Below are positions 14,116 through 18,719 of a stretch of DNA of 64,000 nt, piece by piece. Both the position numbers and the translations under genes were made by a program. Numbering within the stretch: position 1 is the stretch's first letter; every line of letters starts with the position of its first letter. The stretch is from a phage: the sequence record PZ445554.1; one strand, written 5' to 3'. Under the pieces are notes generated by a model that made no database searches, had not been told where the DNA came from, and saw only the letters and a list, made by a program, of their open reading frames with translations.

Positions 14116-14586
14116 TTAATCATGTTTCCACACCCCATCGGTATTTGACCAAAGCCGCTGATTATCTGATCCTCGCCACAGCTTTTTAGTCGGAAGATTT
14201 TTCTCATACTTCCCATCAATAATAACATCAACATATTTAAGCATTTCTAGTTGTTTAATATCTTCAAACTTATATCCTGTCCACAACCAAATGCTTTTAT
14301 TGGGATAAAGATTTTTTACTGTTTGAACGATGCAATGAATAACATCTCGGTTATCAGGATAGAGAGGGTCTCCTCCAGTTATAGTTAATCCTTCTATATA
14401 ATCATTATTCAAACATTCAATTAATTGTTCTAGTGTTTCACCAGTGAATGGAATACCATTTCTAGCATTCCATGTTGATTTATTATAACACCCTTCACAT
14501 TTATGCAAACAACCTGTAACGAAAAGAACGACCCTGCAACCAGGGCCATTCACAAAATCACAAGGATAAAATCTATCATAATTCAT
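14116..14586 (-). CDS. nrdG: Anaerobic ribonucleotide reductase activating protein (radical SAM)
   Basis: 156 aa; Cys-rich N-terminus (CRVVLFVTGCLHKCEGC); adjacent to nrdD. Confidence 0.85.
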   Translation of the reverse strand: MNYDRFYPCDFVNGPGCRVVLFVTGCLHKCEGCYNKSTWNARNGIPFTGETLEQLIECLNNDYIEGLTITGGDPLYPDNRDVIHCIVQTVKNLYPNKSIWLWTGYKFEDIKQLEMLKYVDVIIDGKYEKNLPTKKLWRGSDNQRLWSNTDGVWKHD

Positions 14587-16400
14587 TGATGCTTAACCCT
14601 ATGCATGATTTCTTTATTTTTACCGAGATTAAATCCGCGTTCGTTAGGATTTCCCAAATAACCACATGTTCTTCTTATTGTGTTCATCTTTTTAGGATCA
14701 GTTTCTCCACAAATAGAACAAACAAATCCGTTTTCAGTAGGAGTCATTTCATGGGTACTTCCGCATGTAAAACATTTATCTACCGGCATGTTAACACCAA
14801 AATAATCTAAATGTTGTGCAGCATAATCCCATACGGCCTCAAGACCCTTTAAGTTATTTTTCATATCAGGAAGTTCAACATAAGAAATGTGACCACCTGT
14901 CGCAATGAAATGATATGGCGCTTCACGAGAAATCTTTTCAAACGGAGTAATATTTTCTTCTACTGAGACATGGAAACTGTTAGTGTACCAGCCTTTATCG
15001 GTAACATCTTTTACGCTTCCATATTTTTCTGTATCGAGTTTACAGAAGCGATAACAAAGGTTTTCAGCAGGAGTCGAATATAAACTAAAAGCAAATCCGG
15101 TTCTTTCAGTCCACTGTTTAAGATGAGCATTCATTTTAGTTAAAATTTCTCGTCCAATATCACGACCGACAAGAATATTCAATTCGTGAATACCAATGTA
15201 TCCTAAAGACACTGAACTTCTACCGTTTTTAAATAACTCAATTATGTCGTCATCAGGTTTAAGACGAACCCCAAATGCACCTTCTTGGTAAAGAATAGGA
15301 GCAACAGTAGCTTTAACTCCTTTTAAGGAACTAATTCTACACATCAAAGCTTCAAAACATAAATCCATTCGTTCATTGAATAATTCAACAAATTTCTGTT
15401 CATTGAACTGTGTTCCAATATAAGAATCTAACGCGATGCGAGGAAGATTCAATGTTACAACACCAAGATTATTACGTCCATCAAGAATTTCATTGCCAGT
15501 CGAATCTTTCCATACGCTCAAGAAACTACGGCAACCCATTGGAGAAACAGGAACAGATGAACCAGTGATAGCTTTATTATTCTTAGCTGAAATAATATCA
15601 GGATACATTCTTTTGCTTGCACACTCTAGAGCAAGCTGCTTAATATCATAGTTCGGATCGTCTTTATAAAGATTAACACCTTCTTCAACGAACATAACAA
15701 GCTTAGGGAAAATAGGAGTTATCCCATCACGACCAAGACCTTTAATACGATTTTTCAGAATTGCTTTCTGAATCATTCGTTCAGTCCAGTCAGTTCCCGT
15801 ACCAAATGTAATTGTTACAAAAGGAGTCTGTCCGTTTGAACTAAAGAGAGTATTTACTTCATATTCATAAGCTTGGAATGCATCGTATACGTCTTTTTCT
15901 GTTTTAGATTGAGCATAATTCAACGCATCAGCGATTTGCCATTTTTCTGCATCCTCAATATGTTTTGCATAGGTGCGTTTAACATAAGGAGAAAGTACTT
16001 TATCTACATTCGCAAAAGTCGTTCCGCCGTATTGGTGAGAAGCAACCTGTGCAGTAATTTGTGCCATAATTGCAGTAGCAACGCCAATTGATTTAGGAGT
16101 TTCAATCTGTGCATTACCAAGCTTAAATCCGTTCTCAAGCATTCCTTTTAAATCTACTAAACAGCAATTAGTAAATGGAAGAGCAGGGGAATAATCAATA
16201 TCATGGAAATGAATAATTCCGCTTTCATGCGCTTTCATAATAAAAGACGGGACCATATTTTTGGCAATGTGTTTAGACACAATACCAGCCATAAGGTCCC
16301 GTTGAGTTGGAAAAACACGAGAATCTTTATTAGCATTCTCGTTTAAAAGGTCTTTATTAGTTTTATGAATCAATCCTTCAATTTCTTTTTCAATTGTCAT
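14583..16400 (-). CDS. nrdD: Anaerobic ribonucleoside-triphosphate reductase (glycyl radical enzyme), uninterrupted
   Basis: 605 aa continuous ORF; C-terminal zinc ribbon CFTCGS...CSICG and glycyl-radical motif RRTCGYLG. Confidence 0.9.
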   Translation of the reverse strand: MTIEKEIEGLIHKTNKDLLNENANKDSRVFPTQRDLMAGIVSKHIAKNMVPSFIMKAHESGIIHFHDIDYSPALPFTNCCLVDLKGMLENGFKLGNAQIETPKSIGVATAIMAQITAQVASHQYGGTTFANVDKVLSPYVKRTYAKHIEDAEKWQIADALNYAQSKTEKDVYDAFQAYEYEVNTLFSSNGQTPFVTITFGTGTDWTERMIQKAILKNRIKGLGRDGITPIFPKLVMFVEEGVNLYKDDPNYDIKQLALECASKRMYPDIISAKNNKAITGSSVPVSPMGCRSFLSVWKDSTGNEILDGRNNLGVVTLNLPRIALDSYIGTQFNEQKFVELFNERMDLCFEALMCRISSLKGVKATVAPILYQEGAFGVRLKPDDDIIELFKNGRSSVSLGYIGIHELNILVGRDIGREILTKMNAHLKQWTERTGFAFSLYSTPAENLCYRFCKLDTEKYGSVKDVTDKGWYTNSFHVSVEENITPFEKISREAPYHFIATGGHISYVELPDMKNNLKGLEAVWDYAAQHLDYFGVNMPVDKCFTCGSTHEMTPTENGFVCSICGETDPKKMNTIRRTCGYLGNPNERGFNLGKNKEIMHRVKHQ

Positions 16401-16870
16401 TTTAAACTCTTTCTAAGCTGCTTCTTAAATGAAGCTATTAACTGTGTTTTGGTGTCAGATTCATTATATTCAAATCCTCTTTGAAGCATCTCGGCCATCA
16501 TTTCCTCTTTTCCTAAACGAGAAAATTCCTTTGATTTATCTCCAACAAAGTTAGGGTGAATATTATTTTGGGTGTAATCGGATTTTAAATAAGTAAGTAA
16601 ATTTTCTAACCATTCAAGATAATCAACACCTTGTCCCTTTAAGCCAGAACGATTAAATTTGTGCTTCATTTGACCTTCTGCGGCATTGCAGAGATTACAA
16701 AGCAATCCACGTACCTTTCCTGCTTTTGGTCCATTTAATTCATGGTCATGATCAAGATGATTAGCTTGAACATCAGGATTTAGTTCTCGTTGGCAAATTA
16801 AGCATTTACCGTTTTGTGCATTATAAAATTTCTGTTTTTCTTCTTTGTATAATTTGCCAGTCAATAACAT
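16397..16870 (-). CDS. 49: Endonuclease VII (Holliday junction resolvase)
   Basis: 157 aa; recognised as T4 gp49, including the zinc-binding CLICQ...CNLCN region. Confidence 0.9.
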   Translation of the reverse strand: MLLTGKLYKEEKQKFYNAQNGKCLICQRELNPDVQANHLDHDHELNGPKAGKVRGLLCNLCNAAEGQMKHKFNRSGLKGQGVDYLEWLENLLTYLKSDYTQNNIHPNFVGDKSKEFSRLGKEEMMAEMLQRGFEYNESDTKTQLIASFKKQLRKSLK

Positions 16871-16912
16871 AATAAAACCCTTACCTTAAATAGATAAGGG
16901 TATTTATTATTT

Positions 16913-16960
16913 TTAAGTATTGTAAAACATTCGATGCAATCGTTTATACTGTCGAATCAT
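16913..16960. repeat. Direct repeat R1, copy a (48 bp)
   Basis: About 42/48 identical to 17130-17177; encodes the C-terminal 16 aa of the 58-aa ORF. Confidence 0.8.
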
Positions 16961-17089
16961 CTTTTTAGTAGGACGAGAATAGGTTCCTACGCAAGTGGTC
17001 ATATGAGGGTCCGTAGAATGTCCTTTAATAAAAAGTTTCCAAACCTTACCGCCATTTAACTTTTCAGTATAAACCAATTCGGTTTTCAT
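16913..17089 (-). CDS. Small chimeric ORF (58 aa) sharing its C-terminal 16 aa with the next gene
   Basis: Below track cut-off; ends MIRQYKRLHRMFYNT, matching the C-terminus of ORF 17130-17615 (MIRQYKRLHQMFYNT) through a 48-bp direct repeat. Confidence 0.35.
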   Translation of the reverse strand: MKTELVYTEKLNGGKVWKLFIKGHSTDPHMTTCVGTYSRPTKKMIRQYKRLHRMFYNT

Positions 17090-17100
17090 TAAAATGCCTT

Positions 17101-17123
17101 GTCAGAAAAAGAATTTTGAGTTT
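17101..17123. repeat. Direct repeat R2, copy a (23 bp), followed by a T7 run
   Basis: Exact copy of 17181-17203; lies in the leader of the 58-aa ORF. Confidence 0.8.
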
Positions 17124-17129
17124 TTTTTT

Positions 17130-17177
17130 TCAAGTATTATAAAACATTTGATGCAATCGCTTATATTGCCGAATCAT
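17130..17177. repeat. Direct repeat R1, copy b (48 bp)
   Basis: Encodes the C-terminus of ORF 17130-17615. Confidence 0.8.
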
Positions 17178-17615
17178 TTGGTCAGAAAAAGAATTTTGAG
17201 TTTCAAGCCATTCAATATATTCTGCCGCAGCTTGCATCAGGTTACCTTCATAATCATCAATATCTTTTTTCAATGCCACTTTAGCTAATGCATATGAAAT
17301 ACGTTCACCTTGAAAAGCGGCTTTAGGCTTCTGAACATCTTGGCTAGTTCTCTCTACAACTTCCTCGATTTCACCATTTTCAACGGATTCAGTATTCCAC
17401 AAACACCAATACGTAATTGGCTTATCATAGATGTTAATAATCTTTCCGTCGGAAAGTTCAATTTCAATAATTCCAGTGTCAGGCTCTATATCATCTTCAC
17501 ATTCTTTTGCAAGTTCACGAACTTTAAAGACAGTACCTGCACTAAGTTCCGGCCAGTAATTACATAGCCCTGTATCAACACGATTAATTCTAAACCACTT
17601 ATCTACTGTAATCAT
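17130..17615 (-). CDS. Hypothetical protein, 161 aa (position of T4 pin, Lon protease inhibitor)
   Basis: ATG MITVDKW with GGAG RBS; early-promoter cassette upstream; size and position fit pin but I cannot verify the sequence. Confidence 0.5.
   Translation of the reverse strand: MITVDKWFRINRVDTGLCNYWPELSAGTVFKVRELAKECEDDIEPDTGIIEIELSDGKIINIYDKPITYWCLWNTESVENGEIEEVVERTSQDVQKPKAAFQGERISYALAKVALKKDIDDYEGNLMQAAAEYIEWLETQNSFSDQMIRQYKRLHQMFYNT
17181..17203. repeat. Direct repeat R2, copy b (23 bp)
   Basis: Inside the coding region of ORF 17130-17615. Confidence 0.8.
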
Positions 17616-17655
17616 GTCCCATCTCCATATCAATTAAGTCATTTATCGTTGGTTC

Positions 17656-17685
17656 ATTATATACTGTTTCTTCATCAGTGTAAAC
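17656..17685 (-). promoter_or_regulatory. Early promoter (GTTTAC / TATAAT)
   Basis: Minus strand GTTTAC-N18-TATAAT about 40 nt upstream of ORF 17130-17615. Confidence 0.6.
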
Positions 17686-17738
17686 CGGTTCTTCCGGCTC
17701 TGGCTCTACAGTTTCCCATCTAGCCGCCCACCAAGGTT

Positions 17739-18059
17739 TTATAGCGTAATCCATTCTCGTACTGTCTGAGTTACTACACGTTCTCGAAGCTCAACCAGTT
17801 CAACGGTAGGAACTGCATAATACCAGTCAGAATGGTAAGAACCTGAGCGAGATTCATTTACAGCCACATGTACATTATGTTTTGGACTAAAATAAACACA
17901 CTGACGATATTGGCATTTACCATCTTGCACCCAGTCTTCTATTTCGATAGGTTTAAGATAGTCGGAAAAATCGAAATCATAGTTTTCCGAAAATGCATCA
18001 TGGTCTTCGATGATTTCACTCAGAACTGCATCAACATCTAATTTATTTTCAATAGTCAT
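17739..18059 (-). CDS. Hypothetical protein
   Basis: 106 aa ORF. Confidence 0.5.
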   Translation of the reverse strand: MTIENKLDVDAVLSEIIEDHDAFSENYDFDFSDYLKPIEIEDWVQDGKCQYRQCVYFSPKHNVHVAVNESRSGSYHSDWYYAVPTVELVELRERVVTQTVREWITL

Positions 18060-18070
18060 TTTTTCACCAA

Positions 18071-18280
18071 TTAATTTCGCAATTTATTAAGTTCTTCATA
18101 ATCAATCCAGGATTCTAATCCTGATGGCAAATCAGATTCAATTTCCCACAGAAGTTCTTCAATTTTATGAAGACGATCTAATTCTTCAGCTGGAATAGTA
18201 ACCATTGATGGAGCTCTTGATACACTAATATCGTAAATCATATTTACCCCAGTTTGACCATACAATCGCCGTATTTCCAC
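18071..18280 (-). CDS. Hypothetical protein
   Basis: 69 aa ORF. Confidence 0.45.
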   Translation of the reverse strand: MEIRRLYGQTGVNMIYDISVSRAPSMVTIPAEELDRLHKIEELLWEIESDLPSGLESWIDYEELNKLRN

Positions 18281-18459
18281 TTAGAAATAGACTTTTCGCC
18301 GTTAGAATAATAAACTTCGAGTTTAGCACGATTATTTTTAATTTGAATAACCTTGGCTGTCATTAAAGTTCCATACCCATAGTAAACTGCAACTTCATCA
18401 CCTACATATACCGCGCTTCCGCGGTAATCATGGATATAATCAGTTCCTTCGAGCATCAT
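18244..18459 (-). CDS. Hypothetical protein
   Basis: 71 aa ORF. Confidence 0.45.
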   Translation of the reverse strand: MMLEGTDYIHDYRGSAVYVGDEVAVYYGYGTLMTAKVIQIKNNRAKLEVYYSNGEKSISKWKYGDCMVKLG

Positions 18460-18719
18460 TTAAAGTATTCCCGCAATTGGTCAAATCCACCAATATGACT
18501 TCCATCAGGAGCAAATACCTGAGGCATTGTCAAGCCAATTTGAGTATCACGACCTAGTTTAGTCAGAAGCTCAGCAATTTTCTCATCGTCAAAAACACCT
18601 TTTTCCGGCATAATGTTGATAAACTCAAACGGCTGTTTCTTCACGGTCAAAAGACGTTTTGCATTATCGCAATACACACATTTATGGATGTTGCTATCAT
18701 AACCATATACTTTAAACAT
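18456..18719 (-). CDS. nrdC: Thioredoxin (glutaredoxin-like)
   Basis: 87 aa with CVYC redox motif; recognised as T4 thioredoxin. Confidence 0.85.
   Translation of the reverse strand: MFKVYGYDSNIHKCVYCDNAKRLLTVKKQPFEFINIMPEKGVFDDEKIAELLTKLGRDTQIGLTMPQVFAPDGSHIGGFDQLREYFK

Follow-up and report, generated by a model that had tools for sequence, protein, structure and literature searches.

Repeats beside the endonuclease VII gene of a T4-like phage as probable footprints of two successive rearrangements at the pin/DUF7279 boundary

Introduction

How did two neighbouring genes of a T4-like phage come to end in the same C-terminus, and to which of them did that C-terminus originally belong? The question is raised by a locus beside gene 49 (recombination endonuclease VII) in a 64,000-nt stretch of phage DNA, hereafter the window, whose genome is T4-like (Tequatrovirus) and is read here opposite to the direction of its early genes. 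A preliminary description, made from the letters of the window alone, had noticed a 48-bp repeat shared by a 58-aa ORF and the larger ORF next to it, together with a second repeat of 23 bp, and had read both as a recombination or insertion scar that created a new small gene from an unrelated N-terminus and a neighbour's C-terminal tail. Here we compare the locus with those of related phages and arrive at a history in which the scar stands and the direction of the borrowing is reversed.

Results

Gene order and repeats at the locus

The genes and the stem-loop of the locus, all on the minus strand, were as follows:

14583-16400, minus strand: nrdD, an uninterrupted 605-aa ORF
16397-16870, minus strand: gene 49, recombination endonuclease VII (Pfam PF02945 and PF09124; T4 synteny)
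16877-16901, minus strand: stem-loop just upstream of gene 49 (-18.2 kcal/mol, z = -4.6)
16913-17089, minus strand: 58-aa small gene of the DUF7279 / phrog_3272 family (profile matches)
17130-17615, minus strand: pin (PinA, inhibitor of host Lon protease), 161 aa, ATG at 17615 (PF10465, phrog_2167)
17599-17754, minus strand: gene 49.1
17739-18059, minus strand: gene 49.2

This order is that of T4 apart from the added small gene, with pin in the orthologous position downstream of gene 49.1 and upstream of gene 49. Elsewhere in the region, the T4 record has nrdD in two pieces with I-TevII inside and mobC downstream, whereas the window's nrdD (14583-16400) is unbroken, and two different small ORFs (69 and 71 aa, at 18071-18459) fill the position of T4 gene 49.3, where the ORF of relatives is annotated 'antitoxin from a toxin-antitoxin system'.

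Both ORFs, the 58-aa one and the larger one at 17130-17615, were present as described and share the C-terminus MIRQYKRLH(R/Q)MFYNT, followed by the stop codon. The longer repeat was recovered with 42/48 identical bases at a spacing of 217 (16913-16960 vs 17130-17177), and a longer match with the same spacing of 217 spans 16904-16960 and 17121-17177 (49/57, 86%). The shorter repeat proved exact over its full length (23/23): the 23-mer GTCAGAAAAAGAATTTTGAGTTT stands at 17101-17123 and again at 17181-17203, at a spacing of 80; the match stops at both ends, and the 64-kb window holds no third copy. When 16000-18500 was shuffled 200 times, the longest exact repeat in direct orientation measured 11.3 on average and was never above 15, against the 23 observed. 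One detail needed correcting, in that the homopolymer after the 23-mer had been given as T7 and is T10 (17121-17130). Listed from pin towards gene 49, the parts of the repeat region are:

17181-17203, minus strand: 23-mer copy 1, coding, pin codons (E138)T139-D145 (ETQNSFSD), from the alignment
17178-17180, minus strand: fusion-junction codon CAA (Q146), with CGA at the same position in T4, from the alignment
17130-17177, minus strand: tail copy 1, captured, pin codons M147-T161 and stop TGA (42/48 to 16913-16960)
17121-17130, minus strand: A-run (T10 on the plus strand), which would join the fused pin to a re-acquired cassette
17101-17123, minus strand: 23-mer copy 2, non-coding relic of pin codons 138-145 (repeat search and alignment)
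17089-17100, minus strand: relic of the original short-pin end, AAG GCA TTT TAA (KAF and stop), from the alignment
16961-17097, minus strand: 137 bp absent from T4/T2/T6, whose deletion creates the fusion of pin to the tail, from the alignment
16913-16960, minus strand: tail copy 2, native, small-gene codons M44-T58 and stop TAA (42/48 to 17130-17177)

The last base of the A-run doubles as part of the pin stop codon, and the length of the run varies from A5 to A11 among relatives, with A6 the commonest in the sample and A10 in the window. The difference between A10 and the usual A6 may be a true length polymorphism or sequencing noise; the run is non-coding and neither ORF is affected. The second 23-mer and the bases that follow it, AAGGCATTTTAATG, make up a 37-bp relic of an original pin 3' end that is now non-coding, and alignment shows the bases at 17089-17100 to be the real pin 3' end in pSs-1, HY01, JEP6, and SP1.

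The small gene as the original owner of the tail

Profile searches separated the two parts of the larger protein. It matched PF10465 (Inhibitor_I24) with 155.9 bits against a cut-off of 27 (E 7e-46) over residues 4-140 only, and phrog_2167 over residues 1-146 (E 3.5e-62), while residues 146-161, beyond the point where the Pin models end (~140-146), match phrog_3272. The protein is 91% identical to T4 Pin (PinA, UniProt P07068), an orthologue of 161 aa with the same fusion junction and the same tail. Lon binding and inhibition have been demonstrated for T4 Pin only (PMC8835725 and references therein), and the form of PinA used in that biochemistry is the fused 161-aa protein (PMC8835725). We found no solved structure for Pin; in a structure model of mean pLDDT 62.6 the tail prolongs the long C-terminal helix at pLDDT ~50, and its packing on Pin is not readable at these values.

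The 58-aa ORF, in turn, matched positions 1-58 of the 59 in phrog_3272 (E 3.4e-34) and model positions 1-53 of Pfam DUF7279 (PF23945; 62.7 bits against a cut-off of 24.5), with the shared tail inside both family models. Because this is a full-length family match that includes the tail, the ORF is an established gene and no novelty. Its product is 100% identical to RB33_080 and to the SP1 protein, and further members are pSs-1 gp91 and JS98 orf76, whose record notes similarity to RB32 ORF078c. AlphaFold predicted three beta-strands and a C-terminal helix at residues 42-56 (best model pLDDT 81.8, the other four 52-67), such that the shared tail is essentially this predicted helix, which is amphipathic and basic. 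A fold search of the model against the PDB returned nothing significant (best E 0.27), so that no function can be proposed from the fold. An exhaustive profile search with the DUF7279 alignment recovered only about five credible representatives, all of 29-61 aa, and a word-indexed search with the small protein found only 10 clusters, all DUF7279; representatives this few and short indicate that the tail is no widespread module. The profile search also returned four long hits, which look spurious, with many short matched stretches. The window holds no further DUF7279 paralog or copy of the tail.

Comparison across genera established the direction in which the tail moved. The DUF7279 tail, RPTK(K/R)-IR--KR-HR-FYN, occurs in Tequatrovirus, Dhakavirus (JS98), Gaprivervirus (VR7), Mosigvirus (JK36, ST0), and Gelderlandvirus (S16), and DUF7279 keeps it even in phages without pin (ST0, S16). 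The Pins of JS98, VR7, and pSs-1, on the other hand, end in SFSD(E/R)(A/V)F and the Pin of Mosigvirus JK36 in ...ERRLS, each followed by its stop codon and each lacking the tail. Since the tail is conserved in the DUF7279 proteins of five genera and missing from outgroup Pins, it is native to the small gene and was acquired by pin. The proposal that a new 58-aa gene was made by adding the larger neighbour's C-terminus to an unrelated N-terminus had in its favour that the tail is common to both ORFs and that the small ORF's N-terminus is indeed unrelated to Pin, but we consider it very improbable against a Pfam Pin model that stops at residue 140, outgroup Pins without the tail, and a small protein that belongs to its family from end to end, with the tail inside both models and kept in five genera even where pin is missing. 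One of the two genes is thus chimeric, as had been supposed; it is pin and not the 58-aa ORF.

Three layouts and an in-frame deletion of 137 bp

Base-by-base analysis of 22 Tequatrovirus loci resolved three layouts, represented by 7 window-type, 9 fused, and 6 split loci. The split layout, which is ancestral and which many phages retain, occurs in pSs-1, HY01, JEP6, KIT03, UFV06, and SP1; there Pin has 148 aa and ends in ...ETQNSFSDRAF, and the start of the small gene overlaps the pin stop as TAATG. The fused layout occurs in T4, T2, T6, BF15, and EC121, with a 161-aa Pin and no small gene; in T4, pin lies directly beside the gene 49 hairpin, without the small gene, the second 23-mer, and the A-run. 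The window layout, which runs from a fused pin through the A-run and the second 23-mer plus AAGGCATTTTAATG to an intact small gene, is also found in G9062, RB33, L14, a48, 232Ecol030PP, and an IMG/VR contig (L009). A fourth layout, in GiZh, consists of a 148-aa Pin alone, the small gene having been removed between two GTTTTA hexamers.

The fused layout equals the split layout minus exactly 137 bp (window 16961-17097), a deletion that places the last 16 codons of the small gene (15 residues and the stop) directly after pin codon 146. Because 137 leaves a remainder of 2 on division by 3, it offsets the +2 frame shift of the overlapping TAATG genes and the fusion is in frame; unfused neighbours therefore exist alongside a fused form that is the same sequence less one contiguous, frame-restoring segment. 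On these alignments the window's pin is the fused form, that is, Pin residues 1-146 followed by a 15-residue tail from the neighbouring small gene. We found no description of the origin of the T4 Pin tail in the open-access literature, nor any mention there of DUF7279 or of a pin gene fusion.

The layouts are common, although the record counts are approximate and include GenBank/RefSeq duplicates. The diagnostic junction of the window layout (Pin tail, A-run, 23-mer, small-gene start) was covered in 114 phage records, RB33 included, and the small gene was present at ≥80% identity in 195 records, which gives roughly 80 split genomes. The T4-type junction was covered in ~390 records, a count that is again approximate because the search joins pieces and split genomes also cover the T4 junction query; once these are discounted, roughly 300 fused genomes are left. 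An IMG/VR scan with Pin returned only 5 loci. The preliminary description had allowed that the arrangement might be a conserved and known feature of T-even genomes, and the truth lies in between: it is deposited in all of those 114 records and absent from T4. That the repeats come from mis-assembly, for which one could argue that short near-identical repeats and a homopolymer are error-prone contexts, is scarcely credible when the same junction recurs in 114 phage records from many laboratories and hosts as well as in the IMG/VR contig.

The layouts also differ in how the small gene is presented to ribosomes. In the window it is the relic TAA that overlaps the small-gene ATG as TAATG, a Shine-Dalgarno-like AAGG supplied by the relic lies 7 nt upstream of that ATG (AGGA in most relatives), and the small gene has lost its translational coupling to pin. 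At this site window-type genomes (RB33, L14, a48) and SP1 have AAGG or AGGA where ordinary split genomes have CGAGCG or CGAGCA, that is, up to four changes within six bases of an otherwise conserved stretch, with a better Shine-Dalgarno as the result; such an improvement would make sense if it evolved after the coupling to pin was lost.

A probable two-step history

We consider it likely, at roughly 85%, that the repeats are the footprints of two successive rearrangements at the pin/DUF7279 boundary of a T4-like genome. The starting point would have been a 148-aa pin ending in SFSDRAF and overlapping, through TAATG, a 58-aa gene just upstream of the gene 49 hairpin. The first rearrangement, the 137-bp deletion, would have cost pin its last three codons and the small gene its first 43, leaving pin fused in frame to the small gene's last 16 codons, which is the layout of T4/T2/T6 and their 161-aa PinA. 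In the second, a fused-pin genome would have regained an intact small-gene cassette, joined at the A-tract after the pin stop codon; this cassette would start within pin codon 138 and thus carry the 37-bp relic of the original pin end. An ancestral-layout phage infecting the same cell most likely supplied the cassette by illegitimate crossover, and the join we favour runs from the end of the fused pin (…ACTTGAAAA…) to pin codon 138 of a split-type genome (…GCTTGAAAC…), which would give the order 23-mer, tail, A-run, 23-mer, small gene, tail. We infer both the place of the re-acquisition in this order and its mechanism.

The first step left a uniform signature. Among fused and window-type genomes the junction position is identical in 16/16 Pin tails, and all 16 carry CAA (Gln) where 13/13 small-gene tails have CGA (Arg); with the same junction and a shared CAA, the fused pins of T4 and the window go back to a single fusion. 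The two tails within the window have separate sources, however. Compared with the small-gene tail of pSs-1, the Pin tail of the window has 2/48 differences (46/48 identical; BF15 Pin tail: 1/48), and compared with the window's own small-gene tail it has 6/48, which indicates that the two come from different lineages.

The second step is recorded in the cassette, from the second 23-mer to the small-gene stop. Its mean diversity among the 7 window-type genomes is 0.45%, whereas the pin body varies by 6.6% and split genomes differ by 5.5% in the cassette. A near-invariant cassette set in flanks that are diverse and mosaic points to a single, fairly recent origin, presumably followed by spread through homologous recombination. 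Both parents of the proposed crossover have CTTGAAA at the predicted sites, but a simple exchange there would leave A3, whereas runs of A5-A11 are seen, which speaks against it; the breakpoint lies in this variable A-run and cannot be placed exactly within it. SP1 is the only ancestral-layout genome with the same cassette allele (5/215 differences from the window's), and may be kin to the donor lineage or else have arisen from a window-type genome by exchange between the two 23-mers. With SP1 open to both readings no clear donor is identified, flank similarity being uninformative on this point because the flanks are mosaic; the same mosaicism precludes a tree of the layouts. Gene conversion could also blur allele sharing.

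We conclude that the repeats are passive scars that serve as substrates for ordinary homologous recombination. Exchange between the two 23-mers would delete 80 bp and restore the ancestral layout, and exchange between the two tails would delete 217 bp and give the T4 layout, so that the window layout is a hub, convertible to either of the others in one recombination step. The reading of the repeats as a recombination scar is supported.

Similar instability in other phages

The boundary between pin and DUF7279 genes has been rearranged elsewhere as well. In Mosigvirus (JK36, L007:906-1680) pin lies between two DUF7279 paralogs in the order A, pin, B, gene 49. ST0 (L008:1501-1671) carries a chimera of A with the B tail and has lost pin through a crossover between DUF7279 tails at ACTTTTATA, as seen at the DNA level. 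In a Mosigvirus metagenome contig (L027) pin continues, from a junction at ACGTTT, into the last 9 codons of B, also at the DNA level, a case that in this single contig reads as Pin acquiring a DUF7279 tail for a second time and independently; no such fusion was found among isolated phage records. In two further loci (L028 and L029) paralog A reads through into pin to give a 191-aa fusion and B is absent, again as seen in the DNA, and B has likewise been lost from mar005P1 and AV113.

Pin itself varies in structure. In JS98 (L004:1029-1504) and VR7 (L005:1056-1501) it exists as two ORFs in swapped order, with a 57-aa ORF that matches Pin residues 102-146 (E 1e-10) located upstream of an ORF of 90-100 aa, whose JS98 version (100 aa) is similar to Pin residues 21-79 (E 2e-4). 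The arrangement resembles a Pin that was split and permuted, as tandem duplication and trimming would give, and PHROG divides Pin in agreement with such a split, into phrog_10788 (N half) and phrog_9092 (C half). A 1494-bp ENA contig (P0030) encodes a 142-aa protein composed of Pin residues 1-83 and a Peptidase_S24 (LexA-like) C-terminus, which may be a real chimera or a misassembly. Two groups of Mosigvirus Pins (P0032 and P0035, of 55 and 142 member sequences, e.g. Shigella phage ESh15) have a 43-aa N-terminal extension with no recognisable domain; probably the annotated start of these lies too far upstream and takes in a degraded DUF7279 paralog A.

The hairpin boundary

The stem-loop upstream of gene 49, whose extended pairing (~16870-16910) covers the start region of that gene, lies outside the repeats and forms a fixed right-hand boundary that is invariant across all layouts. 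Gene 49 was reportedly among the first examples of a hairpin that sequesters a ribosome-binding site, in work of Barth and co-workers from 1988. Sequestering hairpins of this kind, bypassed from a late promoter, are an established device of T4 (PMC2988022). The small gene stands immediately upstream of the hairpin in pSs-1, G9062, JS98, VR7, JK36, and ST0, though not in S16. On the coding strand, 16900-17210 contains no sigma-70-like promoter, and all ORFs from nrdD to gene 49.2 are assigned, with no HNH or GIY-YIG homing endonuclease among them.

Discussion

Among alternative accounts the one that comes closest to the two-step history takes the same events in another order, with a tandem duplication first: the unit from the 23-mer through the small-gene stop (~217 bp) would have doubled in an ancestral-layout genome, the first copy would then have lost the 137 bp, and T4-type genomes would have derived later from the window layout by recombination between the tails. 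Such a duplication yields the exact structure observed; the repeat order (23-mer, tail, 23-mer, ..., tail) fits a duplicated unit that lost an internal stretch, a single homologous exchange separates the window layout from each of the other two, the two 23-mers have stayed identical to each other in the window, G9062, and RB33, and the split, order-swapped Pin of JS98 and VR7 is of the kind that such duplication produces. We nonetheless regard this order as possible rather than probable, on account of the alleles. The first tail carries another lineage's allele, being of pSs-1 type at the three positions where the window's own small-gene tail departs from that type (CGG CAA TAT AAG vs CGA CAG TAT AAA), with 1-2/48 differences as against 5-6/48, which would be unexpected had both tails come from one genome; the cassette, moreover, varies by 0.45% where fused-pin tails vary by 3.2% and occur in far more genomes, which suggests that the fused layout is older. 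The contrast between identical 23-mers (0/23) and diverged tails (6/48) is not statistically decisive alone.

A different kind of account would make the capture adaptive, with the DUF7279 helix as a portable functional module (for instance with the same host target) that adds an activity to Pin, and with both genes kept in the window since both are useful. Pin has been fused twice to a DUF7279 tail, at different junctions, in Tequatrovirus and in the Mosigvirus contig; DUF7279 genes adjoin pin in four genera and on both sides in Mosigvirus; the tail is a predicted amphipathic, basic helix; and the fused form is the commonest layout. We think this unlikely, however, because the small gene is repeatedly lost by deletions that make no fusion (GiZh, mar005P1, L028), the Mosigvirus fusion is a single metagenome contig with no counterpart in phage records, the Pin model is of low confidence at the tail (pLDDT ~50), no fold or sequence relative yields a function, and the changes seen in Pin tails mostly replace an amino acid (M/K, R/Q, H/N, and the fixed R to Q; one is synonymous). 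Non-synonymous and synonymous differences stand at 4:1 in Pin tails and at 1:3 in small-gene tails, very few sites in either case, which hints that the tail may be under weaker constraint on Pin than on the small gene; the repeated losses without fusion likewise fit the tail as a neutral by-product, and we infer that it is neutral on Pin. The fuller version, in which the helix was captured at least twice by Pin as a portable module, shares a host target such as Lon, and makes of the window layout a reversible switch, is somewhat more doubtful still. Very little, finally, speaks for a PeSL-type regulatory shuffling cassette (early promoter and stem-loop) or for the product of a homing endonuclease. 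Such cassettes are indeed at work in the hyperplastic region to which the locus belongs in T4-type genomes (PMC2839356), and VR7 has an HNH endonuclease gene two ORFs upstream, but the repeats are coding sequence with no sigma-70-like promoter in or beside either of them, the lone stem-loop lies outside them, and the window has no endonuclease gene between nrdD and 49.2; we hold both ideas to be highly improbable.

The two-step history that we prefer needs only processes already familiar in these phages. Deletions and duplications at short homologies are known in T4 from classical rII work. They are also the subject of Singer et al. 1982 and Mosig et al. 1998, as cited in PMC2839356. Like those deletions, several at this locus end in direct repeats of 6-9 nt (GTTTTA in GiZh, ACGTTT in the Mosigvirus contig, ACTTTTATA in ST0), whereas the 137-bp T4-type deletion has no clear microhomology at its ends. 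PeSL shuffling (Arbiol et al. 2010, PMC2839356; Comeau et al. 2014, PMC4122927) resembles what we see in that small non-essential ORFs are gained and lost in the hyperplastic region through short flanking repeats, by the phage's own recombination machinery, for which short patches of homology suffice. Unlike the promoter and stem-loop cassettes of that system, the repeats here are the 3' end of a gene and part of pin, and the outcome includes an in-frame gene fusion. The locus is accordingly routine phage mosaicism by known recombination processes, with no new element or mechanism.

If the portable-module reading were true, DUF7279 proteins and Pin would share a target in the host, for instance Lon, and the window layout would toggle Pin with and without its tail, naturally and reversibly. 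On the history preferred here, the locus offers a compact and well-sampled case of short homologies making, removing, and remaking small genes and fusions in T4-type phages. It also means that the T4 PinA of Lon-protease biochemistry is a chimera, whose 15 C-terminal residues come from a gene that T4 has lost. For mapping of the Pin-Lon interface and for genome annotation, this tail is foreign to the ancestral inhibitor, and natural tail-less Pins of 148 aa are common enough to serve as ready-made controls.
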